Shown here piece after piece: positions 1,262 through 53,023 of a stretch of DNA of 64,000 nt. A program made the translations under genes and the position numbers. Every line of letters starts with the position of its first letter. The first letter of the stretch is position 1. Below the pieces are notes generated by a model. It was given only the letters and a program-made list of their open reading frames with translations, did not search any database and was not told the DNA's origin. This stretch comes from Ostreococcus lucimarinus (taxonomy: Eukaryota): NCBI GenBank assembly GCA_000092065.1, contig CP000598.1; one strand, 5' to 3'.

Positions 1262-1316
1262 TCATGAGTCATTATCCCTCATACTCGTAATCGACATCAC
1301 TTATCGACGCACTTAG
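1262..1316. repeat. Short fragment of the copia LTR family (matches the cgtaatcgacatcacttatcgacgcact core of the 53024/58579 LTRs).
   Basis: Direct by-eye match to the internal LTR segment atcatcacttatcgacgcactaggcccgattg of the intact element. It sits just upstream of the FkbM gene start. Confidence 0.55.
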
Positions 1317-1344
1317 ACGGTGCGAGCTTCGCCTGTAGATTCTG

Positions 1345-2472
1345 ATGTCACTCGTCACAGCAGCCCAGAAAATGTGCGCAACTCGAAAATATATTGCCGC
1401 TGCTAAGATTTTCACCGTCGTGAGCGCGTTGCTGGTGGTGCGAGAGTACGCACGAGCTGCTCAAAGCGATCGACGGGTTCGAGTCGACTCTCAAACGTTC
1501 ACAAACCAAGTCACGGATAGTAGACGCTTCGATCTGTCAACGTGGGCGAGAGAGCTGCTGCGCGACGTCGGTCCGAAAGCAAACTCTGATGGTATACGTG
1601 TGGGCTTGAGATACATGCAGGCTGAAGATAAACCGTTTTGGATGACCGTGCCTTATAAAATTCCACTTGCGGCCCACGATATAAATGAGCACGTATGGGA
1701 CGCGGGTTCATTTTATGTAGACACTGAAGCCGAATGCGCGCGCAAAATCATGTCGACATTCTGCAACCCCGCCGTCCTCGTCTTGGACGTAGGTGCCAAT
1801 TCTGGTTATTTCTCTCTGCTCGCCGCCGCCTCCGGCTGCAGAGCGTTCGCGTTTGAGCCTGTTAAAGACCACGTGTACTTCATCGAACTATCGGCCGCTT
1901 TAAATGGATTCCGTGATAGGCTACAAGTGTTCAACAAGATTGTTTCAAACACTAAAAATGTTATATTCAATGGCTGGAACGCTGCCTCGAGTGACATGTC
2001 GTTTGTTGCAAACGCTGAAGAGCATAACAAAGAAAAGGCCGGACTGGCGCAGTCGAGCATGAAGCAGGCCTCTGCAGATGATGCCGTCGCCATAGACGAA
2101 GTCGTGAAAGAAGACGTGCTATACATGAAGGTCGACGTTGAAGGCTTCGAACCGAGTGTGTTCGCATCTGCACAGAATTTGATCAAGGATTACACAGTGC
2201 GCTATATTCTCTTTGAGATGACATATTACTTGTACAAGTGGACAGATGCCGATTACTTGATGATACTAGAGTCTCTTGACGGATACGGATACCGCTTGTA
2301 CCACATCGAAGCCAACCATCCAATAAAAAATCCTCAGCAGACGCTTCCGAGAGGAGGATCCCGTTTGAAAGCGTGGTTTGATAAACTTAAGGCCACATGT
2401 GATACCCATGCTACGCATTTTTGTCAAGCAAATATATTTGCCGTTCACGCACAAGCAACCTGGCCAGTCTGA
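1345..2472 (+). CDS. FkbM-family SAM-dependent methyltransferase (Methyltransf_21).
   Basis: 375-aa ORF. Motifs LDVGANSGYFSLLAAASGCRAFAFEP and, about 120 aa later, VLYMKVDVEGFEPSV match the FkbM signature (LDVGAN.G ... IDLLKIDVEGAE). Codon use is GC3-rich. Confidence 0.75.
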   Translation: MSLVTAAQKMCATRKYIAAAKIFTVVSALLVVREYARAAQSDRRVRVDSQTFTNQVTDSRRFDLSTWARELLRDVGPKANSDGIRVGLRYMQAEDKPFWMTVPYKIPLAAHDINEHVWDAGSFYVDTEAECARKIMSTFCNPAVLVLDVGANSGYFSLLAAASGCRAFAFEPVKDHVYFIELSAALNGFRDRLQVFNKIVSNTKNVIFNGWNAASSDMSFVANAEEHNKEKAGLAQSSMKQASADDAVAIDEVVKEDVLYMKVDVEGFEPSVFASAQNLIKDYTVRYILFEMTYYLYKWTDADYLMILESLDGYGYRLYHIEANHPIKNPQQTLPRGGSRLKAWFDKLKATCDTHATHFCQANIFAVHAQATWPV

Positions 2473-2619
2473 GTCCAGAAGCCGGTCAAGAGCGCTTCCT
2501 TCATGGCGCTCACGCGCGCTACCACAGACTCGTCGGCGACAGCGACCCAAAGCTGATAGAGATAGCGAGTGCTACAAACATCGCGTATCCCGATTAACTA
2601 CTTTGAAACCAACTCATTT

Positions 2620-3166
2620 GAAGTGTTTTTGTCGTGCGTTCCTTATGCGGCAGGACTTAGAGGTGCGAATACTTGTGGATCCAAATGGGTAGATAAGGTA
2701 AAACCAGATGGTTCCCTTAAGTCTAGATTGGTAGTACAAGGATTCACCCAAGTTTGGTTGAAGGACTACCACGACACATTTAGTGCTTTTGCTTCCATGA
2801 CCACGTTTAGAATATTCATCAACGTTACGGCATCTTAAGATGGGACATCTTCACGAAAGATGTTTCCCAAGCTTAGACTTAGCTTAGAATTTAAGAGGAA
2901 CTTTTCAGGTCCAGCAGAAATTCACGAGTGTTCTAATCACTTCAACGTGATGTGAAGTCATATATCTTCAGAGTACATACAAGATTCCAGCAACCAGAGG
3001 TTGAATGAAGGTAATGTGAAGAGTGATGCGCTGCACACATTTCAAGAGTATCTCGAGAAGGTCGAAAGTGAGGAAACCCAACCTTTCAAAGGGATTGGTA
3101 CGTCTTCAGACTAGAGAAAGCTATAGCTCCTTGTAATCGACATCACTTATCGACGCACTAGGCCCG
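2620..3166 (+). mobile_element. Internally deleted remnant of the same Ty1/copia family: an RT fragment joined to the C-terminal end of pol, then a deleted 3' LTR.
   Basis: Translation CGSKWVDKVKPDGSLKSRLVVQGFTQVWLKDYHDTFSA (2677-2800) is near-identical to the RT segment of the intact pol at 53214-57212. Translation NFSGPAEIHECSNHFNVM...SDALHTFQEYLEKVESEETQPFKGIG (2900-3110) matches the pol C-terminus. Then come stop, the PPT-like ctagagaaagcta, and an LTR fragment ending at about 3166. Confidence 0.85.
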
Positions 3167-3527: not shown

Positions 3528-4418
3528 ATGAAACGCGGAGGCGTTCGGAACAAGCTGTGCTCAACCAATCGGCGAGTTGATCGTTGCAATAAGGCATGGA
3601 CGCTCGCGCTGGTACCTTTCGCAACCACCTCAATTCTGCTTCTTTTGCTTCACGCGTCGCGGCGAGGTATACAAAGTCATTGGAACGACGCAACAGTGCC
3701 GGCGTTTCCGATGACTACGAATGGCGAAAACACAATGTCTGCTTTGCCTCACACATTGCACACCCTGACGTTACCGAACGATTCGTCGTTCGCGTTAAAA
3801 ATCACCACGCGACTCAACCCGACGTGGACGGTGAAGACGTACGACGCGTACGGCGGAGCCGAGTATATGGAAACGAACTGCAAAAAATATTCACGCGCGT
3901 ACAGAGCACTAAAACCACTCGCGTTCAAAGCTGATTTATTGCGGTACTGCATTCTGTACACCGAAGGCGGCGCTTGGATGGACGACGACATTTTACTGGT
4001 GAAGTCTCTCGACGAATTGACCCACGATATGCGCCACGACGCGTTGTTCGTGTACGACAGACGCGTGTACAAACTCGCGGGCGGGCCGAAACAAGTGTGG
4101 AACGCGTTCATGGTGGCGGTTCCCGGGTTGGACGTTTTCGCGCGCGCGATGGAGAAGATCGCCGCGAACGTCGCCGACCGACGACACTTTTATCATTCGT
4201 TGTACTACACCGGGCCCGCGTTGCTCTACGAAAGCATCGCGGATGGAGATTCGATCGAGTTTCGTTGGCGCGTGCAACATAGAGACGCGCTGAGCGCGGC
4301 GAGTCGACGCGTCGCGGACGTGCGCACGGACGAGGAGGTGTTGTTGCACTTTAAGCTGCCTCGAGCGACGAAGCACTACAGCGAAATGTCGCGGGGAGGG
4401 GACATTTACGCGTCGTGA
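3528..4418 (+). CDS. GT32-family glycosyltransferase (Och1/Gly_transf_sug type, DxD), type II membrane protein.
   Basis: 296 aa with the N-terminal hydrophobic anchor LALVPFATTSILLLLLHA. Motif KADLLRYCILYTEGGAWMDDDI matches the GT32 signature ADILRYxILYxYGGIYLDTDV. Confidence 0.7.
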   Translation: MKRGGVRNKLCSTNRRVDRCNKAWTLALVPFATTSILLLLLHASRRGIQSHWNDATVPAFPMTTNGENTMSALPHTLHTLTLPNDSSFALKITTRLNPTWTVKTYDAYGGAEYMETNCKKYSRAYRALKPLAFKADLLRYCILYTEGGAWMDDDILLVKSLDELTHDMRHDALFVYDRRVYKLAGGPKQVWNAFMVAVPGLDVFARAMEKIAANVADRRHFYHSLYYTGPALLYESIADGDSIEFRWRVQHRDALSAASRRVADVRTDEEVLLHFKLPRATKHYSEMSRGGDIYAS

Positions 4419-4641
4419 AGAAGTCGGCGGAAACGATTTGGCGCGATCGATCGTACGTAGATTCTAGCTCAACGTGTAGTGATGTAGTCTCGAAATCGCA
4501 TCATAGTGTATCATTCTCGTCACGTGCGTAATCACTCACCTCACTTCTCTTTCCCCAGTATTCGTCGTTCGTTTCACGCTTCGCCTCGCTTCGAACGGCT
4601 CCGTCCTCGCACGATCGAAGCGCGCGCGAGAAATCAGCGCG

Positions 4642-5613
4642 TTGTTGCTTTTCGCGGCGTGTTTGACCCTGTTCACACGGTATCGCCGCGCCAAACTCGC
4701 GCGTGCTCGGGTCGAAGAACAGCACTCGTCCGTACAACCGAAGCCGACGCGTTCGACGGCGCCGATCGCAAAAGACGTCGACGCCGCCTTCGATCGCGCG
4801 ATCAACGCGATCAACGCCGATAAGCTCAAGCGCTACGCGCTTTTCGACACCGTCTCGCGCGGAGGCACGCAGAAGGCCGATGGTTGGTACCAAGACAACG
4901 TGGAGCCCGCCGTGACGTGCGCGCGCGAAGAGCGCGCCGGTCCAGCTGGCGAGGGTGGGAAGGGGTTGTGCGACCCGAACCGTCTGCGCGCGCAGGGTGC
5001 GGACTGTTTGATATATAGCGTCGGAAGTTTCGATGACTTTAGTTTCGAAGAAGCGATCACGCGGGACGTGTCGAGCGCGCGCGAAATACACGCGTTCGAT
5101 CACACGGTGTCGAACCCGCGAAACAAACCGTGTGGTGTCCACTTTCATCCATTGGGATTAGGAGGCGCGCGCGAACCCGATGGGAGCGATTTGAAAGGTT
5201 TAGCCGACATCGTCGTCGCGCTCGGTCACAAAGGAAGGACGATAGACGTATTAAAAATTGACTGCGAAGGCTGCGAATGGAGCACTTACGGCAGCTGGTT
5301 CGACGCCGACGTGCGCGTCGATGAAATGCTCGTGGAAATACACGCGGGCACGATTGACTCGAACTTGAACGAAATACATCAATCGTGGCTCTCTCTGATC
5401 GTCGGCGAACAACTTTTCGGCCGCGGCGCGCTCGACCCTTCGCGCGAGCCGGTGGCGAAACGTTTCTTACGACGCCTTTACGACGAAAACTTTTACATTT
5501 TCCACAAAGAGCCGAATATCAAGTATTCACGATTGCACAAAATGTGCGTCGAATTCGCACTCATTCGCTTCGATGGTGGTATTGAGGGTGTGGAAAATTC
5601 CCCAAACTCGTAG
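4642..5613 (+). CDS. Methyltransf_21 (FkbM-domain) methyltransferase-like protein, membrane anchored.
   Basis: 323 aa. N-terminal TM LLFAACLTLF; CLIYSVGSFDDFSFEEAI...EIHAFDHTVS; later IDVLKIDCEGCEWS. These fit the Methyltransf_21 pattern (C.VYSFG.g.D.SFD ... HAFDPT ... ID.LKIDVEG.E). The true start may be internal. Confidence 0.6.
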   Translation: MLLFAACLTLFTRYRRAKLARARVEEQHSSVQPKPTRSTAPIAKDVDAAFDRAINAINADKLKRYALFDTVSRGGTQKADGWYQDNVEPAVTCAREERAGPAGEGGKGLCDPNRLRAQGADCLIYSVGSFDDFSFEEAITRDVSSAREIHAFDHTVSNPRNKPCGVHFHPLGLGGAREPDGSDLKGLADIVVALGHKGRTIDVLKIDCEGCEWSTYGSWFDADVRVDEMLVEIHAGTIDSNLNEIHQSWLSLIVGEQLFGRGALDPSREPVAKRFLRRLYDENFYIFHKEPNIKYSRLHKMCVEFALIRFDGGIEGVENSPNS

Positions 5614-6041
5614 TAGGTGACAGACACTCTTGTAAATCACTGGGCACGTCCTTTCGAGTCAGCGCTCAACTCTTCGATGACGAAACCAGCGCCACCAGCT
5701 CGACGTTCCATCGAGTCTTTCGACGCAAATGCTCGCCTGTCCTCCGTACCCGCCGCCAGTGGGAAAAAAGTACCGCGCGTTCGCCAGATAGACGAAATCG
5801 TCATCCGGGAGCGCGCTCAGCCGCTGCACGATGTCGTGGCCGCGTCGCGTGAGAAGCTCGACCACCTTGATCGTGTACCATTCGCTCCCTTTGCTATCGC
5901 TAAAATGATTCCTATGCACGGCTGAACCGACGACCATGACGGACAATCGCCTCTCGCAAAGGTGGTTATGACTGACAGACACAAGACGCTTAATTAGTTT
6001 CAAGCACTATGCCACTTTGAGCCGATGCAACCGCTCTCAGC

Positions 6042-8318
6042 CTACCCGAAGAAATCCTTTCCACGGTTCTCGCATTCAACGAAACCAATTTGATAGTGTT
6101 TGTCAACCAAGTGGCGCTGCCTCGCCGTGTTGCGCCAGTTATTCCGGCGAATCCATTTTTGATACTCTATTTCGTCGCTTTTCAACGCGAAGAAATACCG
6201 GCGGTGTCGCGCGCTCGATCCACGCGACGCGCGCGAGCACGTAGTCTCGGCTTCATTTCTGTCAAAGAAAAAGTCGTGCGTTCGTAAAGGACGATTTCTT
6301 AGAACTAGCGCATCTCGAAACGAGCCGTACGAAAACGCTACGCGAGCGGCGCAGTTAAACTCCACCAAGTCAGAAATCAAGTCCCGTCCAAGTCTCATGG
6401 TGACGTTTGGAAGTACCGCGGCGAGCTGTTGAAAAAACATACACGTTGGATTGTTCAAGTCTTCGCAGAAAACTCGCACTTGTAATGCCGATTCCGAAGC
6501 GTAACTCTGCACGCTCGCGTAGTACGACGTCGGAAAAGGTCCGTACGTCGTGTGCTTTGACGGCTCTTTCGCAACGAAATGACCCGTCCAACGACTGTAG
6601 GAGCCGCTGACGATGTCTCCCGCGCGCACGTGCACCGCGAGCACATCATCGCCGACACTCTCGCAGGCACGACCAAACGCGTGCGTCACGTTCGTTTCAA
6701 AGTAACGCGAGATAGCATTGGTTACGACAGACCCGTCTGGTATAGACATTCGGTCGTCTGCAAAACCGTTCTGTTGACGAAGCGCATCTTTCGATTTGAG
6801 GTACGTATCGTACCAGCGACGCCCGCTCAGTTTCTGACACTTCTTCGCAGCACGCTTATTCCGCACACCATCGATCTGTTTGTTTGCGAAAAACGTATTT
6901 TCTGATCTCCATCCCGGTAGTATGTCGTCGAGTATGCGCACGTGACAACCGCGGACCAGCGCGTCCTCGAGCATCATCGCAAATATCCGTACCCTATTGC
7001 CGAGCCGACCGTACCATCGCTTAACTGAAACGATATCTGTGTCGTCGTACCTATCGCTCGATGGCTTCATTGGCGTGAAAACCATTCGCTCGTGATCAGT
7101 CTTCGGCTTTGAATCGACGTTTTTGTCGACGCCGGGGCGCGCCGAGCCGTTGCTCCCTCTAGCGATAGGACCATAAAACCAGTCGCGCAGCCATCGTCGC
7201 GCTCCGGGATGCGCTATGTTTTCGAATACATCGCCGTCTGCGGAAAACATACTTTGAAACGTCTTGGCTGTGAACGAAATCGCGCCCACGCGTTCGCCCA
7301 TTTTGACATCCGGCCGTCGAGGACAGACGAGATTCCCCTCCTCGTCAATTGAAAGTTCCAAGTTTTCAACCGTCGGATGCATGAAGTTGGAACAAAAGAA
7401 ACCAAAGTTATGACTCGACAAAAGTTTGTGCAGCAACACATCGCTCGATAACATTTCTTCCTCGAGCATCTGTCCGTAATACGTTTGTAAATCGTATTTC
7501 GGTGGCGTCCTCGCGCTGGACGTAATCCTCCTCCGTTCAAAGTCTCTGACCTTTGCTATTGTTTCGCGATCGAGCGACCAGAGATCTCCGAGTGCGTCGA
7601 ATTCCGGTCGAACCGAAGAGTGCGCGGAATGAAAACATGCTCTTATTCCCTCGCAGTGCGCGCCTCTTTGGTAACCCACGACCCACGACGAGCTTTGCCT
7701 GAACGTCTGTCCCAAGTCTACGAAGACGAGAGTGTCGAGATCGATCCATATCACCCTCGCACCGAACACCGTCATTAAATGTTCTACAGCATCAAGTTTC
7801 GCTCGTGAAAGCGCCGCCCACGGCCCGACGTTCGTGTAAGCGTTTGGCGGAAAAGACTGCGAGTCGCACGCGTGCGTGATTACGTCAACCTCTGTGCCAA
7901 ACGTGGTCTTGAGCGGAATCACGCCCGGCGTGTCCGTGTACACGTGTAAACACGGCGGTTTCCTTGCTTGCGATCTCGCCAACGACGAGTACATGAGCCG
8001 CAAAGCTATCTTCGTGCTTTCCACGCTCCATCTTTTGCCAGCGTTCCGCGCAAAGGCAAACGTAGCGAAGCGAATCGATTCCGGTTCGTCGGCTATCGAC
8101 GCTTCAAGCCGACCTCCGATGCACGGTTCGACGACCACTCGCGACTTTTTACGTTGGAGTGCAACATCATCGCTTTCTCGGGCGCGCTCGCGCGTGCGCT
8201 CTCTGCACAGCCAGCACGCGCACAGCGCGACGAGTACTATCGGAAGCGCTCGTCGTCGCGCGCGCCGCTGCGTTCGATGCGCGGGCAGAGTCGCCCGCGC
8301 ATCGCACGCGAACATCAC
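6042..8318 (-). CDS. Two-domain glycosyltransferase. The N-terminal domain is DxD-type (paralog of 25206-25985). The C-terminal domain is fucosyltransferase-like GT-B with an HxRxGD motif.
   Basis: 758 aa. TM LPIVLVALCACWLC near the N-terminus. The N-domain contains VIWIDLDTLVFVD and aligns by eye residue-for-residue with the 25206 ORF (SRAKLD.VE.LM...WIDLDTLVFVDL...SVRPEFD.LGDLWSLD...PPKYDLQ.Y...NFGF.CSNF.HPT...). The C-domain HVRAGDIV plus RWYGRLGNRVR resembles the GT11/GT23/GT65 fucosyltransferase motifs. Confidence 0.65.
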   Translation of the reverse strand: MMFACDARATLPAHRTQRRARRRALPIVLVALCACWLCRERTRERARESDDVALQRKKSRVVVEPCIGGRLEASIADEPESIRFATFAFARNAGKRWSVESTKIALRLMYSSLARSQARKPPCLHVYTDTPGVIPLKTTFGTEVDVITHACDSQSFPPNAYTNVGPWAALSRAKLDAVEHLMTVFGARVIWIDLDTLVFVDLGQTFRQSSSWVVGYQRGAHCEGIRACFHSAHSSVRPEFDALGDLWSLDRETIAKVRDFERRRITSSARTPPKYDLQTYYGQMLEEEMLSSDVLLHKLLSSHNFGFFCSNFMHPTVENLELSIDEEGNLVCPRRPDVKMGERVGAISFTAKTFQSMFSADGDVFENIAHPGARRWLRDWFYGPIARGSNGSARPGVDKNVDSKPKTDHERMVFTPMKPSSDRYDDTDIVSVKRWYGRLGNRVRIFAMMLEDALVRGCHVRILDDILPGWRSENTFFANKQIDGVRNKRAAKKCQKLSGRRWYDTYLKSKDALRQQNGFADDRMSIPDGSVVTNAISRYFETNVTHAFGRACESVGDDVLAVHVRAGDIVSGSYSRWTGHFVAKEPSKHTTYGPFPTSYYASVQSYASESALQVRVFCEDLNNPTCMFFQQLAAVLPNVTMRLGRDLISDLVEFNCAARVAFSYGSFRDALVLRNRPLRTHDFFFDRNEAETTCSRASRGSSARHRRYFFALKSDEIEYQKWIRRNNWRNTARQRHLVDKHYQIGFVECENRGKDFFG

Positions 8319-8329
8319 GCGACGTGCGC

Positions 8330-8960
8330 GCCGCGTCCCCGCGGACGCGGTCGCTCGTAATGCGGAGCGTCACGCGAAACAGAGCCGTCGCGGTCCGTTT
8401 TAGAGGAGGGTGTCGGCGAGGCGCGCGTCTCGCTCGGTGCGTCGATCCGGGTGCGCGGTGAAGATGATCTCGCGCGCGTCGTGCGTAGCGGACGCGGAGA
8501 ACGTCCCCACGCCTTGTGACGGCGGTTATCCCCCTTCGGCGCCCCAAACGCCCTCTACACACCCATGGCACCTTCGAGGGAGAGCCTAACGTCCAAACCG
8601 ACGTGGAAACTTTAGCCCCAGAACCGCGCGCGCGCGAGCGTCGTTCGCGCGCCGAGCGCGGCACCGATCGTCGCGCGCTGTGCGACGAGGGATTACGACG
8701 CCGACGACGCGGGTGCGCGAGCGCGACGCGCGAAGAAGGAGAACGCGTCGAAACGCGAATGGCGGCGATTCTCGCGGACGAGGATGCGGACGGTGCCCAC
8801 GGGCGCGGGCGTCGTCGGGACGACGCGCGCGGAAGGGGCACGCACGGCGTGGAGCTCGGCGAGCAGGTACGTGTCGCCGTTCATGACGTATTGGTCGCTG
8901 ATATTCGCGATCGCCGACGCTAACTGTCTCGGCGGCGACGCCACGGGGGCGACGTCGGCG
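8330..8960. repeat. GC-rich (CGCG-type) low-complexity block that produces overlapping arginine-rich spurious ORFs on both strands.
   Basis: Sequence is dominated by cgcg/gcgc oligomers. All ORFs here translate to R/A/G-rich low-complexity peptides on both strands. Confidence 0.6.
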
Positions 8961-8977
8961 GGAGCGCGTCGTCGAGC

Positions 8978-9199
8978 GTGCCGATCGCGAACTGGGACGT
9001 GAGCGCGGTGGATGACACGCGCGATTTGTTTCAGTACAAGAGTACCTTGAACGGAGATATCAGGAACTGCAACGTTGGCGCGGTGAAGAACGCGCATTCC
9101 ATGTTCTACCGGGACATCTCGCGCTTGGACGTCCGTGCGGTGAGAGATGTGCAACAAACGTTCTACTCAGCGTCGGCCTGGGAAGCTCTGACGCATTGA
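8978..9199 (+). pseudogene. Possible DUF285-type (BspA-like, WDVS.VT.M..MF) repeat fragment.
   Basis: Translation ANWDVSAVDDTRDLFQYKSTLNGDIRNCNVGAVKNAHSMFYRDISRLDVRAVRDVQQTFYSASAWE contains about 2.5 units resembling the DUF285 repeat W[DN]VS.VT.M..MF....FN.DIS.W. It is not embedded in a long intact ORF. Confidence 0.3.
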
Positions 9200-9235
9200 C
9201 GCACCTCGAGGTGTCTATGAAGAACGCCGCCAGAG

Positions 9236-9448
9236 TACGATCTCCAGGCGTATTTCAGTCTGATGCTCGAAAATGGTGTACTTGCCGAGAACGCTTTGCT
9301 TCACAACTTTCTACCGGACCTCAATTTTGGTTTCACGTGTTCAAACTTTGAGCACCCAACGTCGACTAATATGGAAATTTCTGTCGATAGCGCTGACGAT
9401 CAAGATGTTCGCGCTTGGTTCGCGCGATGGTTTTACTCGCCGCTCTGA
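9236..9448 (+). pseudogene. Truncated duplicate of the 3' end of the 25206-25985 gene (segmental duplication, internal deletion).
   Basis: Translation MLENGVLAENALLHNFLPDLNFGFTCSNFEHPTSTNMEISVDS|DDQDVRAWFARWFYSPL is near-identical to the C-terminus of 25206-25985 minus about 45 aa. The downstream sequence continues the duplication into the GT90 gene. Confidence 0.8.
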
Positions 9449-9490
9449 AAGAATTCGGCAGTAGTTGTCGCTAGATCGTAATATTTAATA

Positions 9491-10696
9491 CTATACCATA
9501 CCTAAGGCTAGCTCATTCAGACGATGGGAAACGCCCTTGACGACGCGCTCGTACGTAAATTCTTGCATCAACGCGCGAGCATTTGCTGTGATATCACGCA
9601 ACTTCGTTAGCGATTCGCCATCGGTGTTCGCCACAATCTTCGTTTTTTCCACTAAATCGTGCAAATCTCCAGATATTCCGATGTAGTGTACTCCATCTAC
9701 CAGCTTGTCGCTGTAATAGTGCTTGAAATTTGACTTGACGAGGAACAGGACGCTCCCGCTTTCCATGCGCCAACGGTTTCCCCACGCGTCGACGTTTCCA
9801 TCGATTTCGAGGATACCTTTGTGCGTGATCCAATGCTGTTCCGATACGTGCGGGCTAATGCGTACATTTGTTTGTCCTTTACACGATTGTACCCTTCGCG
9901 TGATCTCGACGTCGAGCCAAGGAACATTTATGGATGATTGCACCGCTCGCACGCGCGGAAGTTCAACGCACGCGGTAACCCTTTCGTTCACGTCGACGCG
10001 AGCGGGTTCTTCTATTTCGCATTTTGTTGACATACCAGACGTCGAGCCTCTCCAGAATACGTCGGATTTGCGTTCATCAAACGGAATCTCACGTTCACGC
10101 AGATTCCGAAGCAACGGTTTGAACCCGTCGCGCTTGATGAAGTGGAAGTTTGGCGCGAGCACGACTGATTCGTCGGTGAAACAATCCACATTGATAGAAT
10201 GCGCCAGAATGAAAGTGTTCAAGGATTTCAATTCCCGTTTCAGCTCCCTCGGCATAGAGGCATCGTCGTCAATCACCCAAAGGAGTCGTAGAGCCACGTC
10301 GCTTCGTTCTCCTTGGTTCTGTCGCCGTTCCACAGCGACGTCTCGGAGAAACCGCAGGGCACTTTTAAAGTAGCTACGATTCAGCGGTTCACGCCTGCGT
10401 GCGACGAAGGTGTACGACGACGGCGAAGTCGCCTCCGGATGAATGGTGAAACACGCGACGTCTTTACCCAAGCCAAATGAACTGAACTTCAGCATTCGTT
10501 CCCTCACGTCGCCGCAGCAGTTCCGACAGTGCGTCCAAGCATCTTCTCGCATCCACATCTCGCTCAAATACTTCACCGAGCGCTCGCATCCGCGTGTTAT
10601 GAACTGCAAAGACAATACAAACTTCAACAACCAAAAAGCCAACAGCACGCGCAAACCGAGCCGACGTGCGGAGGTTTTCATGGCTGCGGTGGACAT
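9491..10696 (-). CDS. GT90-family glycosyltransferase (CAP10 / protein O-glucosyltransferase-like), membrane anchored. Copy 1.
   Basis: 401 aa. N-terminal TM LRVLLAFWLLKFVLSL; FWRGSTSGM; THKGILEIDGNVDAWGNRWRMESGSVLFLVKS...HYYSDKLVDGVHYIGISGDLHDLVEKTKI. These fit the Glyco_transf_90 pattern (FWRG ... KY.IDIDGN..S.R...L..SVV.K ... HY.P...DLSDL.EK). About 90% identical to 26028-27245. Confidence 0.75.
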   Translation of the reverse strand: MSTAAMKTSARRLGLRVLLAFWLLKFVLSLQFITRGCERSVKYLSEMWMREDAWTHCRNCCGDVRERMLKFSSFGLGKDVACFTIHPEATSPSSYTFVARRREPLNRSYFKSALRFLRDVAVERRQNQGERSDVALRLLWVIDDDASMPRELKRELKSLNTFILAHSINVDCFTDESVVLAPNFHFIKRDGFKPLLRNLREREIPFDERKSDVFWRGSTSGMSTKCEIEEPARVDVNERVTACVELPRVRAVQSSINVPWLDVEITRRVQSCKGQTNVRISPHVSEQHWITHKGILEIDGNVDAWGNRWRMESGSVLFLVKSNFKHYYSDKLVDGVHYIGISGDLHDLVEKTKIVANTDGESLTKLRDITANARALMQEFTYERVVKGVSHRLNELALGMV

Positions 10697-43599: not shown

Positions 43600-45117
43600 A
43601 TGCCGCGATTCAGTAGGAAACGCGCGTTGAGCATACTTTTTGCGTGCGTCGTCACGAGTTCGATTTATTTCTACGCTTCGCACACGGGACGTTCGAAAAT
43701 CTCGATAGCAGTCGACGACATCGCGAAACGTGCGAGTGCGCTCCATTCGCCACGCTCGCGAGATGTGGAAAGCTTACGCAGCGTCTCTCGTCGCGCGAGC
43801 CCGGTTGCGAGTTTTGACTTTGAGTTCGCCGAGTTGAAGTTTCAAAGAGTCGTCGACGCGAGCGCCGTCGGCGACGCCGCTTCAACCACGCCGGCGTCTA
43901 TATCGTGCGACTCCGCTATTAACGACTCCGCGCGAGTCTTGACGGATGATTTCAGCGAAATCCTGGCGTGGGCATCGGCGGTGCGGCGCGAGTCGAAACT
44001 AGTGCATCTGGTGAAGTCAGCGACGCCGAGGGTGTTCGTCACCGGCTTGCTACACAACAGCTGCGTGCTCATGCACCACTACGTCGTCGAGGTGTTGAAG
44101 TTTATTCTCCTGTACGGCAACGATGAAGGTTTTGAGAATGTCTTCGTATCCCTGTACTCGAGCGGCGACGGTGACTGCGCGGTGTTGACGCTCGAAGCGT
44201 TCAAAGAACTTTTAGACGCCATCGGCGTTCCAAACGTCATCAAGACTCGGCAACGCGAGCGTATTCCTGGCATGGCGCGCATCGACTTTTTGCAAAGCAT
44301 TCGAAACGCGGCGATGGAACCTTTATATTTGAGTGATACACCGTACGACGAAGTCGTGTTTCTTTCTGACGCATTCTTTTGCGCCGGAGACATTGTGCGC
44401 TTGCTACGTCACACCGAAGCGAGCATCAAGTGTGGATTAGATTTTGATGGTACCACGAACGCGATGAAGTTTCGAGACACGTGGGTCGCGCACGACATGA
44501 GTGGACGCATGTTCACCAAAGAGTTCCCGTTTGTGCACGACGTCGTCTCGTCGCACGCCTTGAACGGCGGGGCACCTTTCCAGGTTTTGTGCTGCTGGAA
44601 TGGCCTACTGACCTTGCGTGCAAAAGTATTTACTGATCTCGGCGTGCGGTTTAGACGCTCTTTAGACGATACAGAGTGTCACGCCGCGGAAACCGAGCTC
44701 ATTTGTCACGATTTTGCGGCGCTTGGACACCCGAAGATGTTGGTTGATCCGCAAGTGACGGTGACGTATACAAAGGCGGAGTACGTCGCGCTGAGTAATT
44801 CGCGCTCGAGCCCGCACTCGTATTCTTTGAGGCGCACAAACATGTTCTCGAATGAGTCGATCGCTACGGTGGAGACGTGGGCAGAGCGCCCGTCGAGCAC
44901 GGAATGTGCCCCACTCGATGGGCACGCGGGCGATCATCCAGACAGAGGACGAATTCGACACGTCGATTGGAACGCGCACTACGCCGAAATGGGTGTTCCT
45001 GTTGCATCGGAGAAGAAGATTACGAGTTTACACGCCTGTGACGGTCCTTCGGCGAGCCAGTGCGTGCTGAGTGGTGGTAAACGCGCATTTGTTTCGCGCG
45101 ACGCGATGAGTAGATGA
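43600..45117 (+). CDS. GT69-family (CAP59/Cmt1 alpha-1,3-mannosyltransferase-like) glycosyltransferase, membrane anchored.
   Basis: 505 aa. TM LSILFACVVTSSIYFY. VVFLSDAFFCAGDIVRLL matches the CAP59 motif I.FLNDVvFc..DiLeLl. QVLCCWNGLLTLRAKVF matches the downstream SCWNG motif. Confidence 0.6.
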   Translation: MPRFSRKRALSILFACVVTSSIYFYASHTGRSKISIAVDDIAKRASALHSPRSRDVESLRSVSRRASPVASFDFEFAELKFQRVVDASAVGDAASTTPASISCDSAINDSARVLTDDFSEILAWASAVRRESKLVHLVKSATPRVFVTGLLHNSCVLMHHYVVEVLKFILLYGNDEGFENVFVSLYSSGDGDCAVLTLEAFKELLDAIGVPNVIKTRQRERIPGMARIDFLQSIRNAAMEPLYLSDTPYDEVVFLSDAFFCAGDIVRLLRHTEASIKCGLDFDGTTNAMKFRDTWVAHDMSGRMFTKEFPFVHDVVSSHALNGGAPFQVLCCWNGLLTLRAKVFTDLGVRFRRSLDDTECHAAETELICHDFAALGHPKMLVDPQVTVTYTKAEYVALSNSRSSPHSYSLRRTNMFSNESIATVETWAERPSSTECAPLDGHAGDHPDRGRIRHVDWNAHYAEMGVPVASEKKITSLHACDGPSASQCVLSGGKRAFVSRDAMSR

Positions 45118-45235: not shown

Positions 45236-46300
45236 TTAGACTACATTTGAATACAGAAACGTCGACCCGATGACGAGCGCTATGCCGAGAGATGCCGTAA
45301 CGCTCAGGTTGTGTCCGTCGTTGGCGAACACCGTCGTCGCGAGGGCGCAATTACATATGGAAATAGACACGGCAAAGCATTTGAGCACGTTCCCCGCGTA
45401 TCGCAACACCGCCGCGACGACTAAACCACCGGCGGCTTGTAGCGCGATGACGAGCAACACGACGCTGTCGTATCCTTGAAACACGCTTTCGTTCGCGCGC
45501 AAGCGCTCTCCATCGCGCCACACTGATCCAATCAACGCCACTGGAAGTGAAAAGCACGCCAGTTGTGCGTTTCGGAACCATACCGATCGCTTTTGAGCGT
45601 CCACTTCTTTGTACATTTTCTCTAAATACGCCCCCGCGAAACCAGACGTAAACGCGGCGGTGAGCACGGCGACCATACCTCGCAGAGTGTCTTCCGGCCG
45701 CGCTCTATCCGACGGCACATTGCTCCGATGTCCTTCCTCGTTCTGTACCATGATCATCCCACACACGAGCACCAACAACGCTACATATTGTTTACGCGTG
45801 ATTCGCGTTCCCAGGAGCACGACGCTACAAATCGCGCTCGTGAGAATTTTGCTCTGCGAACACACCATGTATGCGGTCGGGCTCAGCAACCGCACGCCCT
45901 CGAAAAGGAGGTTGTTTTGTATCACGTACAGCACCGATGGGACCGCGAGCCGCGTCGCGTTGGATGGCACCTCGCGAAGCGCGTCCCGGGCGGCGCTTTG
46001 TCCGTCGGACGCGACCAACAAAATATAGCTCAAAACGAGTTTGACGAGCTCGGCGCTCGCGATGACTGTGGATACGACGTAAGGCGTCGCGGCTGTTCGA
46101 TACGAAAACTTCGTCATGAGCACCAAGGCGGTGTTTTGGATCGTCAAGATGAAAAGCGCCAGCGCTTGATGCTTTCGCGACGCTGACGAAGTGACTGGAA
46201 CGACGCCTGATGCACGCGTCGTGGTGTTTGCCTTTCGCTCCAGGTAAGGTGCCTGCATATGTCGATTCGCCAACGCTGTTTCGCTGAACGCAATACTCAA
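45236..46300 (-). CDS. Nucleotide-sugar transporter, SLC35A-like (UDP-Gal/UDP-GlcNAc/CMP-Sia type).
   Basis: 354 aa and polytopic. TSGFAGAYLEKMYKEVDAQKRSVWFRNAQLACFS matches the SLC35A signature LSGFAGVYFEK.LK.....S.W.RN.Q. Confidence 0.7.
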   Translation of the reverse strand: MSIAFSETALANRHMQAPYLERKANTTTRASGVVPVTSSASRKHQALALFILTIQNTALVLMTKFSYRTAATPYVVSTVIASAELVKLVLSYILLVASDGQSAARDALREVPSNATRLAVPSVLYVIQNNLLFEGVRLLSPTAYMVCSQSKILTSAICSVVLLGTRITRKQYVALLVLVCGMIMVQNEEGHRSNVPSDRARPEDTLRGMVAVLTAAFTSGFAGAYLEKMYKEVDAQKRSVWFRNAQLACFSLPVALIGSVWRDGERLRANESVFQGYDSVVLLVIALQAAGGLVVAAVLRYAGNVLKCFAVSISICNCALATTVFANDGHNLSVTASLGIALVIGSTFLYSNVV

Positions 46301-46559
46301 CTACACTTCGTTACTGCGATGCGACGTAAACTTCCCGTAGGACAGCGACGTGTCGCGCGAAAATCTTCGCGAGCGCCGAATGAAGATTTCGCCGCGATGC
46401 GTCTCTCGGCCGAAGGATGAGCGGAAGTGTATATCACGCTCGCAGGCGCGATATGTTGTCGAAACTGCGCGGGGCGAAAATTTCACCTGTTGAATTAATT
46501 TCACCGCGTAAAATTTAAGGGCGAGTAAGAGATAGAAATTCCTTGTCGGAATAGCGAGT

Positions 46560-47170
46560 AATTTTCCAATTTTCGCTATTCTTTTTTTTCAAAAGAGATG
46601 GGCCGGAATAAAAACGCTCCGTGCCAACCTCGCGACGCGTTGCGCGCGAACGACGCGCGCTCAACGACGAAAGATCAACGCATGACGTGAGCGAGACACA
46701 ATTTCACGAGCGTGGCGTCGCGACTCGACCGATATCACGGTGGTGCGCGCTCATTCAATTTGAGGTGCTTTTCCAAAAGAGTTAGAACATGATGTTACAA
46801 CAACGACGCACGGCGCGCGCGACTGCCCGCTATCGACTATGAAACGGTTGAAAACGATGCGCGCGCGTTACTGTTAATTAATGCGCGTCACGGCTTCCAC
46901 CATCGCGCGCGGCACTGGCGCGGCGACGGTGACGCTTCGAATTGTTTTTCAAAAGAGATAGCCGGAAGAGCGTTGTCGGCATAAGACCCCCTAAAAATTA
47001 ACTCGTCACGTGACGAGTCGTCGCTATGCGAACAAGATCCTTGTCCGCGTAAATCGGCCCGATTTACGCGGATAAAAAGCTTGTCCGCATAAGATTTACG
47101 CGGATAAGCCATCTCTTATGAAAAAAAACGGCCCTTATCCGCGTAAATCGCCGATTCTATTTTCGAATTT
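46560..47170. repeat. Cluster of short inverted/direct repeats including a perfect palindrome (tccgcgtaaatcgg cc cgatttacgcgga) and ttttcaaaagagat..gccgga direct repeats. Possibly a MITE-like element or a regulatory hairpin array.
   Basis: The motif ccgcgtaaat / atttacgcgg occurs at least 4 times in both orientations within 150 bp (47040-47160). ttttcaaaagagatgggccggaa (46574) recurs as tttttcaaaagagatagccggaa (46941). Confidence 0.5.
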
Positions 47171-47242
47171 CGCATCTCTTAGTCGGCCTAACGCGGTTAA
47201 CGTTCATCTAGACCGACGGTCGGGTATGTCCTGGTAAAACCG

Positions 47243-48436
47243 TTGTCGCACTCTGAGGCCCCGCGCACATTCGACAGACGTCGCTGTTTTGAAGCGATGC
47301 GAAACAAACGAAGGACGCGACGGCTTCGTATCACGGTGATTTCCATTACGCTGGCGTCATCCATGTCGTTCATCATGTACCGTAGTCTTTCGTCGTCGTC
47401 GTCGTCGTTGAAAACGCACCGTGACGACGTCTCGCCACTTGAACGTTCAATCGCTGACGTCGTGCGCGACTTAAAGGCTACGCGCGAGCGTGTGTTGCGC
47501 GATGTTTTAGCGACCGCAGTGAGTACGGATACGACGGATGCGCGAGAGGTCGAAAACAGTTCGCCGATCGCGGACGCGCTCGATCAAGCGAAGCGAATCA
47601 TCGAGAACTTTGACCGCGCTGGTCGCTCGAACGCCAGAGAGGATGAAGCCGAATCACTCGAGACGTTACGTAGTGTAGTCGAGAGCGTGAGTGATGTACA
47701 ACGTTTAGCGGCAAATCCGAATTCGCCGGTGGTGAGGCGCGCGAAGAAGCGTTCAGAGCTGTTCAACAGAATTCACGACGCAAATTTATGGGGCAGCGCG
47801 GAGTCGAGATCCGGGGGCGGTTCGACGAAAGCGACGACGAGTACCGCGGCGAGATGTATCGGCGAATGGATTCGAAAGTATGACATCAAGACTTTCTTGG
47901 ACTTGCCGTGCGGCGACGCGAATTGGCAAGCAGGCATCCCTGGGATTGAGAACGTAAGATACACTGGCATGGATATAAGCGTCGGCGCGCTCGAGACGGC
48001 GAAGACGCGCATGTCTGAGGTTCAAACCGATATCGACGATTTTCGCACGCATGATATCGTCGCGTTACCTATGCGCCAACGTTACGACGCCATCATGCAT
48101 CGCGACGTCGTGCAACACTTGTCTTACGAAGAAGCCCTGCGAGGTTTGTCCAATTTCGCGAAGAGCGGTTCGACGTACTTCATCGTCAGCACGCACCCGA
48201 AATCGACGGAGCGAGGCGTGGAATCGGACGTCGGTGTAGCGCGCGATATTGGATACACGTATCAAAACAACATGCAGTCGGAGCCATTCAACTTCCCGCC
48301 GCCGTTGGAAATGTGCGACAACTACGCGAACAACGACGCTTCAAAGATTGCGATTTGGAGAATCGCGGACCTTCCGAATTTCGAACGTAAGCTCGCGCAT
48401 ATTTCAACGCACGAAAGCGGCGCGCGAAAGATTTGA
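47243..48436 (+). CDS. Class I SAM-dependent methyltransferase, membrane anchored.
   Basis: 397 aa. TM ITVISITLASSMSFIMY. Motif I FLDLPCGDANW. Motif II YDAIMHRDVVQHL. Motif III FAKSGSTYFIVS. Confidence 0.6.
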   Translation: MSHSEAPRTFDRRRCFEAMRNKRRTRRLRITVISITLASSMSFIMYRSLSSSSSSLKTHRDDVSPLERSIADVVRDLKATRERVLRDVLATAVSTDTTDAREVENSSPIADALDQAKRIIENFDRAGRSNAREDEAESLETLRSVVESVSDVQRLAANPNSPVVRRAKKRSELFNRIHDANLWGSAESRSGGGSTKATTSTAARCIGEWIRKYDIKTFLDLPCGDANWQAGIPGIENVRYTGMDISVGALETAKTRMSEVQTDIDDFRTHDIVALPMRQRYDAIMHRDVVQHLSYEEALRGLSNFAKSGSTYFIVSTHPKSTERGVESDVGVARDIGYTYQNNMQSEPFNFPPPLEMCDNYANNDASKIAIWRIADLPNFERKLAHISTHESGARKI

Positions 48437-48439
48437 CGT

Positions 48440-49260
48440 TAGCGTAGCGCGGGTTGTCATTCGCCACCACGCGCTCGAGCGTCGCGCGCGGCGACGCGCG
48501 GCGCGACGCTCGAGCGCGCATCGACCGGCGTCGCTCGTTCGCACCAAACCGCGCGCCAAACGCGCGCGGCGCGTTCGAACGTCGCCGTCGCGCGCGTCGC
48601 GAGAAAAGGCGCGAAATCACACGCGCGCGCGGCGCTAAGATTGCGTGTCCACGTGATCGTATTGCAGTGATCCAAACGACCGTGTGAATAAAACTCGAAA
48701 CACCATAAAAACCAACGCCGCGCCCGCGTCGCGCGCGGCGTCGCGCGTCGCCGCGCGCGAGGGCGTCTCGGGGTTGGGCGTCGCGCGCGTCGAGCGACGC
48801 GCCGCTCGCGGACGGGCGAATCGAATCGTGCGCGCGCGCGGCGCGCACGTCGCGCGGCGCGCGGCTTGCGGCGCACGTCGCGCGGCGTGCGCGCGGCGAG
48901 AGGTCGCGCGGCGCGCGGTCGCGCGCGCGCGCGACGAATTCGACGACGTTCCGTGAGCCGCATTCCGCGTCGTCATCCATCGACGCTCACGGCGTCGGGA
49001 TCGCGACGACGACGCGCGCGCGCGGTGCGTTAGGTGCGTCGTGTTGTTGAATAGTGCGCGAGCGCGTCGGTGCGCGTCGGGGCGATCGCCGCGCGCGTGT
49101 GGCGAGCAAACACGCGTCGGGCGCTCTGATAGATTTGATTTGATTTGTTTGATGTGTTTGATTTGATTAGTGATATTGAAGTCGCCGTCGGCGCGGCGCG
49201 TCCGCGGTTCGGTCATCGCTACCGCGAAGACACCGCGGGACCACCGGTGCATTCAGCTGG
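48440..49260. repeat. GC-rich CGCG low-complexity block with overlapping Arg/Ala-rich spurious ORFs on both strands. It ends in a (GATTT/GTTT)n microsatellite at about 49130-49175.
   Basis: cgcgcg-dominated sequence. The six-frame track shows 8 overlapping R-rich ORFs with no domain-like content. Confidence 0.6.
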
Positions 49261-51159: not shown

Positions 51160-51381
51160 CTAGTTTTCTTCGTCGCTCGGGACGTCATCATCTTCATCGT
51201 CTTCGTCGTCATTTTCGTCGGCAGCGCCGCTCGCATTCACGGGCCGCCCTGGAAGCTCCTGGTCGGAGTCGGGGTAGAATTCGGGATGGTGCACGGAGAG
51301 GTACTCCAAGCATTCATCTTTGATCGCCTGCTTTCTGTCACCTTGCCTCGGTCGCTTGTTCGTCGCGACGCCGTAAATCAC
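51160..51381 (-). CDS. Small ORF (73 aa) with a strongly acidic C-terminal tail. Possibly an exon or a small acidic protein.
   Basis: GC3-rich codon usage in an otherwise AT-richer intergenic region. Tail ENDDEDDEDDDVPSDEEN. No family recognised. Confidence 0.25.
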   Translation of the reverse strand: MIYGVATNKRPRQGDRKQAIKDECLEYLSVHHPEFYPDSDQELPGRPVNASGAADENDDEDDEDDDVPSDEEN

Positions 51382-51722
51382 CCTCCGCGATCCTCAACTA
51401 GTAGCATCATCAGTTAATACCATCAAACTGAAGTTATTTTTATGAACACGATATCGATAGTTTGTCCAGACGGACGAGATGTAAATCAATGAAACTGAGA
51501 CCGTGTCTCGAGCAGAGACACTAATCGCCGTGTGAGACAACACCGATCAACGTGATGTCGCAACATCAGTTTATTACCTTCGCGAACTGACGAGTAAAAT
51601 TCACCAGTGATGAATGTGGTCTTCAGCAGCCGCCCGCTTTAGGATTTTGACTCCTTTGTGGTCTAACGTCAATGTAATATCAAGATGGGTTCCGGTTGAC
51701 TACTGAAACCACCTGCGGTGAA

Positions 51723-52814
51723 TTACACGATTACATTGATATGTTTCGCCAGTTCAACGGCATACTCATAGAGTTCTACGTCGTATTTGAACTTTTGATA
51801 TAAAGCTGCCTGAACTTGTACATCGCCTTGATAAAAATCCTCGTCCTTCACACTACGTAGAGTATTGTTTGAGCTACGACTCGAATCAATCGTGAAGTTG
51901 GTAACACCAAGATTTTGAAAGAACACGCGCAAATCCTGATCGTATGTTTCTCTGACCAATATTGCGCTGAAGTGTCGTAATCGTTCTTTCGCGGTTTCAA
52001 GAAGAAGGGCCATTATTTCATCTCTAGTCATCGTCGCTAGTTGCGTGGTGTTCTTCAATGATGTCGCTGTCGCTATCGATTGTATGTCATCAGTTCTTGT
52101 TATGCCAGTCAAAGAAAATATTATATGCCCTGGTACGCTTTCACGATGTGTGTCCATGAGGAGGTTTTCTCTGAATGAATGCGATGCCAGTCTAGCCGCA
52201 TAGCTTGTCGCAGACAGCTCGGAAATTTGCTGCGCTGTATACCCGCTCTTTCTGAAATAGTTGACGTTATGCGCGATATGACTGTTATACATGTCGTATG
52301 GATGTCGAATAGCGGTGGCGTACACCCAAGGACGTTCAGTGCTTGTGTTGAAATGAGGTGACATAGGGTGCTCCATCCCAAAAAATTCAACTCGTCGTCC
52401 CCCGGTAGTCAACTCAGAGAACAAATCCTGCTGCTGTTCGAAGTCACCGTAGGCACGCGCGTCAGGTCCGCAGGTTGGTGAGGTCACTAACTCACAGTTA
52501 CAACTCCGGTTTCCGCGCACTCCTGCTCCTGACGCATCCATGGAGCTGCACAGCGTTGTCCCACCAGCCTTCTTCAAGTGCACAAAATATACTACACTCT
52601 GTCCCTGGCGCGTTCTGAACCGCCTAACAGCATCAATATCACTTCGCTCGTATTCCGTCGGGATGACGTGCTTTGCAACTCGTTTTACCAGATCATCACC
52701 AGAGTTTCGCAAGTATATCGATGAGCCCCACGTGGCGATTAAACACCCTATGACGAAGATTCGCGCTTGCATACGTCGTTCACGGTGGTTCGAAAACGAA
52801 ATAGTTGCATCCAA
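51723..52814 (-). CDS. Carbohydrate sulfotransferase (Sulfotransfer_2/3 type, Golgi type II membrane protein).
   Basis: 363 aa. TM IFVIGCLIATWGSSIY. VVYFVHLKKAGGTT is the 5'-PSB motif (F.H.PKTGGTT). RHPYDMYNS is the 3'-PB motif (RdP.dR..S.y). Confidence 0.6.
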   Translation of the reverse strand: MDATISFSNHRERRMQARIFVIGCLIATWGSSIYLRNSGDDLVKRVAKHVIPTEYERSDIDAVRRFRTRQGQSVVYFVHLKKAGGTTLCSSMDASGAGVRGNRSCNCELVTSPTCGPDARAYGDFEQQQDLFSELTTGGRRVEFFGMEHPMSPHFNTSTERPWVYATAIRHPYDMYNSHIAHNVNYFRKSGYTAQQISELSATSYAARLASHSFRENLLMDTHRESVPGHIIFSLTGITRTDDIQSIATATSLKNTTQLATMTRDEIMALLLETAKERLRHFSAILVRETYDQDLRVFFQNLGVTNFTIDSSRSSNNTLRSVKDEDFYQGDVQVQAALYQKFKYDVELYEYAVELAKHINVIV

Positions 52815-53023
52815 GTTTGTTCATGTCGTAGCGCGTCACTACACACCGCGCGCGTCCGGGTGACGCTGATTGGCGCGGGAAGCGGCCGTGGCAGCCTATG
52901 AGAAACCTTGGGTATAAGTCGCGATGGTTGCCGCGGAACTGGCTAAATCCAGCCTTGTTTTTTGGGGTGGGGTAAAACGACCAATCGTGACTCAATATCC
53001 GTTTATATATTTAGTGCACACTT

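Follow-up and report, generated by a model that had tools for sequence, protein, structure and literature searches.

The small outlier chromosomes (SOCs) of Mamiellales, among them chromosome 19 of Ostreococcus tauri (the "viral immunity chromosome"), chromosome 19 of Bathycoccus, and chromosome 17/19 of Micromonas, share a lower GC content, a load of glycosyltransferase, methyltransferase, epimerase/dehydratase, and sugar-transporter genes, transposons, duplications, and rearrangement among strains. Their gene content, size variation, lack of synteny between species, and link to virus resistance have been published (Moreau et al., 2012, PMC3491373; Yau et al., 2016, PMC5082852; Blanc-Mathieu et al., 2017, PMC5498103; PMC5371798). 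Two dominant functions were found to be common to all Mamiellales SOCs, interspecies synteny was absent, and the SOC was hypothesized to vary the cell surface against viruses (Moreau et al., 2012). Among O. tauri strains the SOC is hypervariable, with a size that correlates with resistance to viruses (Blanc-Mathieu et al., 2017); its genes are poorly expressed without virus and induced in resistant lines (Yau et al., 2016; Blanc-Mathieu et al., 2017). Here we describe a 64,000-nucleotide stretch of Ostreococcus lucimarinus DNA (hereafter the window), which carries a cluster of glycan-related genes of about 50 kb and is of the same kind as these chromosomes.

Judging from sequence identity, the window is the left 64 kb of chromosome 18 of O. 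lucimarinus CCE9901, the SOC of this species, because 13 window open reading frames (ORFs) are identical to CCE9901 proteins (ABP00596-ABP00641, XP_0014222xx) of one 149,386-bp record, in agreement with the "chromosome 18, 150 kb" of Table 1 in Yau et al. (2016). That SOC was listed with 97 ORFs, including 11 methyltransferases, 8 glycosyltransferases, 6 NAD-epimerase/dehydratases, 4 sugar transporters, 5 other sugar-metabolism genes, and 1 pyridoxal enzyme (Yau et al., 2016). The GC content of the window is 0.53, and the literature places the GC content of SOCs below that of the rest of the genome (Moreau et al., 2012; Yau et al., 2016). The cluster is thus a correct re-discovery of a published feature, already known and neither new nor an isolated oddity; an earlier note, made from the letters of this DNA, had presented it as very unusual for a eukaryote, a claim of novelty that the description of the Mamiellales SOCs anticipates (Moreau et al., 2012; Yau et al., 2016). 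What is new here goes beyond the published SOC counts: more transferases, a ColD/ColC fusion with a GDP-sugar transporter, a healed telomere, and a 19.4-kb cassette.

Domain evidence came from Pfam and NCBIfam scans of window ORFs of at least 200 aa, and from phmmer searches against the PDB for ORFs without a Pfam match; Rfam and tRNA scans of the window gave no matches. Twenty-three glycan-related ORFs make up 59% of the bases in 1300-52850 (67% with three weaker candidates), and the glycan cluster of 50 kb that the earlier note proposed is real. Also borne out were its counts of four methyltransferases and two nucleotide-sugar transporters and, among its pathway enzymes, the two 4,6-dehydratases, the short-chain dehydrogenase/reductase (SDR), and the UDP-N-acetylglucosamine (UDP-GlcNAc) 2-epimerase. 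We are highly confident that the locus is the O. lucimarinus SOC and that its genes, whose complement changes rapidly, encode a system that assembles and tailors glycans in the secretory pathway.

The physical linkage of the cluster is real. More than 15 independent metagenome contigs, drawn from independent JGI, ENA, and Logan assemblies, are colinear with 26.4-50.9 kb at 99.3-99.9% identity (L001-L008, L019-L025, L031), while 43.3-61.1 kb is colinear in L040, L043, and L045, 0.15-5.7 kb in L012, L016, L017, and L034-L036, and 10.5-18.2 kb is 100% identical in L009. The core block of 26-47 kb is near-invariant (99.3-99.9%) across many samples, whereas the flanking cassettes come and go.

Within this core, the gene at 31662-33908 (+ strand) encodes a 748-aa protein, a ColD-type, pyridoxamine phosphate-dependent 3-dehydratase fused to a GDP-L-fucose-synthase/ColC-like epimerase-reductase (Pfam DegT and Epimerase). 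Among PDB sequences its DegT domain is closest to Escherichia coli ColD (E = 6e-83; 283 bits, versus 223 bits for E1), and the best NCBIfam model is RfbH/E1, below its cut-off. ColD is told apart from E1/SpnQ by having neither a [2Fe-2S] cluster nor an E3 reductase partner. Replacement of the Schiff-base Lys by His is the signature of nucleotide-sugar 3-dehydratases (PMC8987622). In the alignment of SFYFSHHITTGEGG from this protein to SFYSHHIATMEGG of ColD, His-His stands at ColD His188, the column being marked by the Asn of the H188N mutant row 3b8x, so that the domain combines a DegT/aspartate-aminotransferase fold with the catalytic His in place of Lys, and the previous ColD-like call was correct at the catalytic residue. 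The C-terminal half matches GDP-L-fucose synthases (E = 5e-59), the family that includes the GDP-colitose synthase ColC. Stand-alone ColD homologues occur in bacteria at ~57% identity. ColD and ColC are also joined in a single polypeptide in Bathycoccus (57% identity, on a 160-kb chromosome, beside a TylF methyltransferase), and the fusion was further found in Chromera velia and bdelloid rotifers. A ColD/GMER fusion that is 45% identical occurs at 10001-12193 of L029 (ENA scaffold_932_c1, 159 kb), whose content is giant-virus-like (RNase III, Erv1/Alr, several methyltransferases, GT47/FUT8-like and Nucleotid_trans genes), which suggests that some giant viruses may also make a 3,6-dideoxyhexose. 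Our literature search returned no paper tying colitose or ColD to eukaryotes, and the literature found describes the 3,6-dideoxyhexose class only from bacterial lipopolysaccharide.

The gene order ColD/ColC fusion, GDP-mannose-transporter homologue, 4,6-dehydratase is kept in every wild contig examined. The transporter homologue (34035-35216, -) is of the Vrg4 type and is missed by Pfam (PDB 9s35, E = 4.8e-16; Vrg4, 1e-7), and it is one of the two transporters of the cluster, the other (45236-46300, -) being a nucleotide-sugar transporter recognized by Pfam (PF04142 Nuc_sug_transp, 5.8e-75). The neighboring NDP-glucose 4,6-dehydratase, copy B (36260-37450, +), has a 108-nt in-frame GT..AG intron and a spliced product of 360 aa equal to XP_001422288, and copy A (19958-21144, +; Pfam), 96% identical to it, has a 107-nt GT..AG intron; the ORF finder splits copy A, which is nevertheless intact, because the 1-nt length difference between the copies falls within the intron. 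On the simplest reading, the fused ColD and ColC domains would make a GDP-3,6-dideoxyhexose that is then imported into the Golgi; the fused GMER/ColC-like domain and the neighboring GDP-mannose-transporter homologue point, indirectly, to a GDP-linked sugar.

Two further nucleotide-sugar enzymes belong to the cluster. A short SDR (NAD-dependent epimerase/reductase; 42598-43395, +; Pfam) is a candidate 4-reductase. The protein of 15523-17895 (-) is a membrane-anchored, non-hydrolysing (WecB-type) UDP-GlcNAc 2-epimerase (aa 76-464; TIGR00236, 427 bits) fused to a C-terminal domain of ~320 aa that matches no family and has a DDD motif. Searches did not bear out the GT64 domain assigned to this C-terminus, which has no Pfam match at E <= 10, no PDB match, and no kinship to the homologue family that we call A3 (see below).

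At least 11 glycosyltransferase (GT) genes lie in the first 52 kb, versus 8 for the whole chromosome by InterPro (Yau et al., 2016). Pfam recognizes two GT32 proteins, one with a DXD motif and a single N-terminal anchor (3528-4418, +) and another at 41190-42398 (-); two GT90 (CAP10-like) proteins at 9491-10696 (-) and 26028-27245 (-), which are 85% identical in amino acids (PF05686 score in the window, 1e-8); a GT61 protein at 11006-12247 (+; 6.2e-16); and a GT69 protein of the CAP59-type mannosyltransferase family at 43600-45117 (+; PF11735, 5e-53). A GT61-like protein at 39281-40858 (-) is below the Pfam threshold (24.8 bits versus a cut-off of 27), and an inverted 3' fragment of GT90 lies at 18087-18315.

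Other transferases are missed by Pfam. The 757-aa protein of 6042-8318 (-) is a two-domain transferase, each domain of which has many stand-alone homologues. Its N-domain (aa 80-385) has a conserved D-x-D and the UniRef name "nucleotide-diphospho-sugar transferase"; profile searches gave no confirmation of the N-domain fold. The C-domain (aa 420-750) is predicted to adopt the fucosyltransferase-superfamily fold (GT11/23/37/65/68), a fold recognized by structure prediction only, and has GRLGN and HVRSGD motifs, the latter of the HxRxGD donor-binding type. Pfam scans of every member of the homologue families of the two domains (A2 and A3), and searches of their profiles against PDB sequences, returned nothing. 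In a combined alignment (A4) MAFFT laid the C-domain homologues onto the N-domain; it was discarded, and the C-domain was modelled alone. The protein of 28783-30459 (+) is a type II membrane protein with a GT-B (GT4-like) fold, its two Rossmann-like domains being superposable on solved GT-B enzymes, and belongs to a family that is widespread in eukaryotes and has no Pfam model; a distant paralogue (5e-8) is encoded at 22744-24342 (-; Glyco_trans_1_2, E = 0.039). Each of the sequences at 6042-8318 (ABP00626/ABP00631) and 11006-12247 (ABP00599/ABP00667) has two NCBI accessions, and identical second copies of the 757-aa transferase and the GT61 gene are therefore expected elsewhere on chromosome 18.

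Three anchored or hinted candidates complete this group, namely a 441-aa ORF at 12275-13600 (-) with weak matches (O-FucT, E = 0.028; XG_FTase, E = 0.057) and a C-terminal NSTYSG motif; a 470-aa anchored protein at 37780-39192 (+), kept in wild haplotypes, whose fucosyltransferase hint is an HFRNRGD motif only; and a conserved membrane-anchored protein at 27146-28339 (+), called GT-A in the earlier note, for which no family was matched. Of the 14 transferases counted in the earlier note, 10-11 are supported and none is contradicted, and one of them (25206-25985, +) is a gene remnant, the 3' part (259 aa) of a 546-aa gene kin to the N-domain of the 757-aa protein.

The tailoring enzymes include two FkbM-family methyltransferases, at 1345-2472 (+; XP_001422279; PF05050, 1.7e-11) and, with an N-terminal anchor, at 14203-15249 (-; Pfam), a Methyltransf_22 methyltransferase at 4642-5613 (+; Pfam, 3.2e-45), and a class I S-adenosylmethionine methyltransferase at 47243-48436 (+; Pfam). 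A candidate sulfotransferase at 51723-52814 (-) has weak matches to PF03567 (E = 0.056) and HS6ST (E = 0.12) and the UniRef name "Sulfotransferase"; phosphosulfate-binding-like KKAGGTT and RHPxxxxxS motifs were read by eye, and the HS6ST match spans the KKAGGTT region.

One hydrophobic segment, at the N-terminus, was scored in the epimerase fusion and in most ORFs for transferases and methyltransferases, whereas no such segment was seen in the SDR, the dehydratases, or the ColD/GMER fusion. The cluster contains linked nucleotide-sugar pathway genes and transferases, as do bacterial O-antigen and capsule loci, and its genes lie on both strands. Among window ORFs of at least 200 aa, Pfam and NCBIfam found no flippase, polymerase, chain-length regulator, ABC exporter, or initiating phosphoglycosyl transferase. 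It is therefore only in layout that the cluster resembles an O-antigen locus of bacteria, because Wzx, Wzy, Wzz, and an exporter are missing, the transferases belong to eukaryotic Golgi-type families and carry single N-terminal anchors, the transporters are of the Golgi kind, and a spliceosomal intron is present. Thus, of the likeness to an O-antigen or capsule locus suggested before, the physically linked precursor-transporter-transferase-tailoring layout stands, and the bacterial mechanism, with Wzx/Wzy/Wzz and a polyprenyl-phosphate transferase, does not. Nor is the set "complete", as had been written, since a GDP-mannose 4,6-dehydratase and an initiating transferase are absent from the window.

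Comparison with other described systems is in line with this picture. In the colitose clusters of E. coli O55/O111 (gmd-colD-colC), as here, precursor, transferase, and tailoring genes are co-located, and a ColD-type enzyme occurs with a ColC/GMER-type enzyme. Bacterial O-antigen and capsule loci further share with the window a WecB-type epimerase and an RmlB-type dehydratase, and are hypervariable and under virus selection. Unlike them, the window has no Wzx/Wzy/Wzz, ABC exporter, initiating transferase, or linked gmd, and its genes are monocistronic and on both strands, with an intron, Golgi-type transferases, transporters, and ColD fused to ColC. The capsule genes CAP59 (GT69) and CAP10 (GT90) of Cryptococcus represent the same two transferase families; they are dispersed in the fungus and clustered here, and the likeness seen is one of families. 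The glycosylation clusters of giant viruses (chloroviruses, mimiviruses) likewise join bacterial-type rare-sugar pathways to transferases and methyltransferases, and the ColD/GMER fusion of L029 stands in such a context, but the window is cellular DNA without viral hallmark genes. The hypervariable islands of Prochlorococcus, which control phage susceptibility, are similarly variable and rich in sugar-modifying enzymes and methyltransferases, an analogy drawn by Moreau et al. (2012); in contrast to the telomere-capped eukaryotic chromosome described here, they are prokaryotic and intrachromosomal and hold other gene families.

Strain variation is extensive outside the core, in agreement with the rapid, strain-variable evolution suggested by the earlier note and with the published SOC work. 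In the reference strain, 5737-25172 is a 19.4-kb cassette, which is replaced by ~0.9 kb in the wild haplotypes L034-L036; these run from window 4423-5736 into ~0.9 kb that holds the 5' half of the 546-aa gene and then into window 25173 onward, so that the gene is intact in them and 25206-25985 is its 3' remnant in the reference. The cassette holds the two-domain transferase, a GT90 copy, the GT61 gene, the 441-aa ORF, an FkbM methyltransferase, the epimerase fusion, dehydratase copy A, and the GT-B paralogue. On nucleotide identity it arose partly by duplication of core genes, because its GT90 and dehydratase are 94 and 96% identical to the core copies. An intact Ty1/copia long terminal repeat (LTR) retrotransposon with gag and pol ORFs and identical 176-bp LTRs occupies 53024-58754 (-); its insertion is recent and strain-specific, because all nine environmental contigs spanning this interval lack it and show the exact empty site. 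Two degraded copia fragments, inverted relative to the full element, lie at 2660-3123. Haplotypes also differ by a 670-bp indel at 46518-47189 and in the tandem copy number of a GC-rich unit at 48462-49123 (one copy here, ~4 in L001). Alternative flanks carry GT_PLOD and GT90 genes (L002), a DNA-methylase/CXXC/Tudor gene (L019), or Mannosyl_trans3 (L032); in L019, an 816-aa protein (C5 cytosine DNA methylase, CXXC, and Tudor; 10426-12876) replaces the sequence after the methyltransferase gene that ends at 48.4 kb.

The candidate sulfotransferase sits in a 2.2-kb cassette (51378-53023 and 58750-59283) that looks mobile or repeatedly duplicated. At 100% identity, this cassette was seen in several contexts: beside the methyltransferase/nucleotide-sugar transporter/GT69 block, as here; with three unknown genes and an FkbM methyltransferase; with DDE or MULE transposase genes; and with housekeeping genes (poly(A) polymerase, RRS1). 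Contigs joining 145 to the reverse complement of 51378-53023 had suggested that ~50 kb is inverted in wild haplotypes relative to the reference; this was rejected, as L040, L043, and L045 confirm the reference junction.

The window begins with a plant-type telomere, (CCCTAAA)x21, at 1-148. A truncated gene at 129-788 (-) matches, at 99% identity, the initial 215 codons of a gene that wild haplotypes carry whole, with 385 aa (8288-9445 of L011). Six contigs run past window position 145 into further genes, and wild haplotypes carry at least another 13 kb of the cluster there, with three unknown genes, an additional sulfotransferase cassette, and two GT4 genes of large size. The end of the reference was made by breakage and telomere addition (healing), because the telomere repeats begin exactly at the gene break. 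The adjacency of the cluster to the telomere is secondary, and glycan character belongs to the whole of chromosome 18, not to the subtelomere alone; the subtelomeric specificity assigned to the cluster by the earlier note accordingly falls.

We propose that the soluble, anchorless enzymes would make NDP-4-keto-6-deoxyglucose and its reduced 6-deoxyhexose, and that the ColD/ColC-like fusion would make a colitose-type GDP-3,6-dideoxyhexose. The two transporters, one of the GDP-sugar type and the other of the UDP/CMP-sugar type, would carry nucleotide-sugars into the Golgi, where the type II single-anchor GT32, GT61, GT69, and GT90 enzymes, the Pfam-missed GT-B family, and the fucosyltransferase-fold enzymes would build surface glycans. 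The membrane-anchored UDP-GlcNAc 2-epimerase fusion presumably supplies and transfers N-acetylmannosamine (ManNAc), and the anchored methyltransferases, and probably a sulfotransferase, would then modify the glycans. On the enzyme families, the product may contain 6-deoxy- and 3,6-dideoxyhexoses, ManNAc, O-methyl, and possibly sulfate groups. Duplication, cassette gain and loss, transposon insertion, and terminal breakage reshuffle the genes rapidly between strains, which would diversify the surface glycome. As with chromosome 19 of O. tauri, this diversity may govern the adsorption of prasinoviruses and thereby decide whether a cell is susceptible or immune to them.

Several points weigh against parts of this proposal. 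The antiviral role in O. lucimarinus is extrapolated from O. tauri (Yau et al., 2016). Outside the reference, the cassette of 5.7-25.2 kb occurs only in two 100%-identical Logan contigs, which may come from the same strain. The anchors were scanned with a simple Kyte-Doolittle window, which is not a topology predictor. Four presumed transferases (12275-13600, 37780-39192, 27146-28339, and the C-terminus of 15523-17895) gave nothing significant with Pfam (E <= 10), NCBIfam, phmmer against the PDB, or hhalign against A2/A3. Finally, the window lacks a GDP-mannose 4,6-dehydratase (gmd), which leaves the substrate assigned to the ColD-like domain insecure. Both 4,6-dehydratases linked to it are RmlB-type (TIGR01181, 330 bits, versus 48 bits for gmd), that is, glucose-type, and therefore either the GDP-mannose dehydratase is encoded elsewhere or the ColD domain takes a glucose-derived substrate. 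That Ostreococcus makes a GDP-activated, colitose-type 3,6-dideoxyhexose and displays it on its surface is a tentative proposal, which we put somewhat below even chances.

Other origins of the cluster were considered. The layout, the WecB-, RmlB-, and ColD-type enzymes, and the FkbM methyltransferases are typical of bacterial loci, and stand-alone ColD homologues at ~57% identity occur in bacteria, so that one could think of an O-antigen or capsule locus acquired by horizontal transfer and still working on undecaprenyl phosphate with Wzx/Wzy or ABC export; yet flippase, polymerase, exporter, and initiating transferase matches are all missing, the GT32, GT61, GT69, and GT90 enzymes carry type II anchors, and two Golgi-type transporters, a spliceosomal intron, and a telomere are present, which makes such an origin highly improbable. 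Just as improbable, in our judgment, is integrated or captured DNA of a giant, prasinovirus-like virus. Prasinoviruses do encode transferases and sugar enzymes (PMC5371798), and the 45%-identical fusion lies on a giant-virus-like contig of 159 kb, but Pfam found no capsid, polymerase, or packaging genes in the window, scans of IMG/VR with the GT-B family and the fusion protein yielded no close relatives, and the DNA belongs to a nuclear chromosome, capped by a telomere, of the strain that was sequenced.

Segmental duplications of 94-97% identity and transposon fragments can mislead assemblers, and a chimera or collapsed repeats could in principle have brought the genes together. We give hardly any credence to such an artefact, since independent assemblies reproduce the gene order over 0.15-5.7, 10.5-18.2, 25.2-50.9, and 43.3-61.1 kb at 99-100% identity, and where they differ, they do so by clean structural variants whose junctions are exact; the check for an assembly chimera named in the earlier note thus came out in favor of the locus. 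It is also conceivable, if rather unlikely, that the genes form a constitutive, housekeeping structural covering, and that their variability is neutral decay on a low-recombination chromosome and not a result of virus selection. The remnants at 25206-25985 and 18087-18315, the truncated terminal gene, the transposon debris, and the near-invariance of the 26-47 kb core across samples would fit such decay. Against it, duplicated genes stay intact, as do both dehydratase copies, and Ostreococcus is not known to have a wall or scales. The induction of the O. tauri SOC in resistant lines and the correlation of its size with resistance (Yau et al., 2016; Blanc-Mathieu et al., 2017) point in the same direction. 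We therefore prefer the SOC-borne, secretory-pathway glycan system set out above.

A cold-shock-domain protein unrelated to glycans (31055-31462, -) lies inside the cluster and is kept in wild haplotypes; a 105-aa ORF kin to it occurs at 30563-30880 (-), and a ~600-bp tandem repeat spans 30794-31568, one unit being absent in L006. The region of 48.4-51.7 kb has no convincing gene. GC-rich low-complexity tracts (CGCGTCG-like) at 48725-48933 and 60284-60414 give long spurious Arg/Ala-rich ORFs on both strands. Beyond the cluster, the ORFs at 61630-62292 and 63079-63939, among which are one of repeated, coiled-coil-like "IDALN.TD..LK" units and one with a PPPSPPPSPP stretch, may encode surface or secreted proteins.

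The public annotation under-counts transferases, as two or three families have no Pfam model, and environmental metagenomes suffice to reconstruct wild haplotype diversity, with a near-invariant core of ~20 kb and variable cassettes. The remaining novelty lies in these Pfam-missed transferase families and in a predicted colitose-type pathway common to eukaryotes and giant viruses. A specific rare sugar can be predicted from the cluster and tested for: a 3,6-dideoxyhexose, the product of the ColD/ColC fusion, served by a GDP-sugar transporter of its own. Should the prediction hold, eukaryotes and viruses would have in common an uncharacterized biosynthetic route, which might also help determine how viruses recognize the cell. 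Among candidates for the means by which the ocean's smallest eukaryotic phytoplankton escape their giant viruses, the SOC stands first, as has already been proposed in print, and the genes it carries are therefore of interest to plankton ecology and to the study of glycan-based recognition between host and virus.

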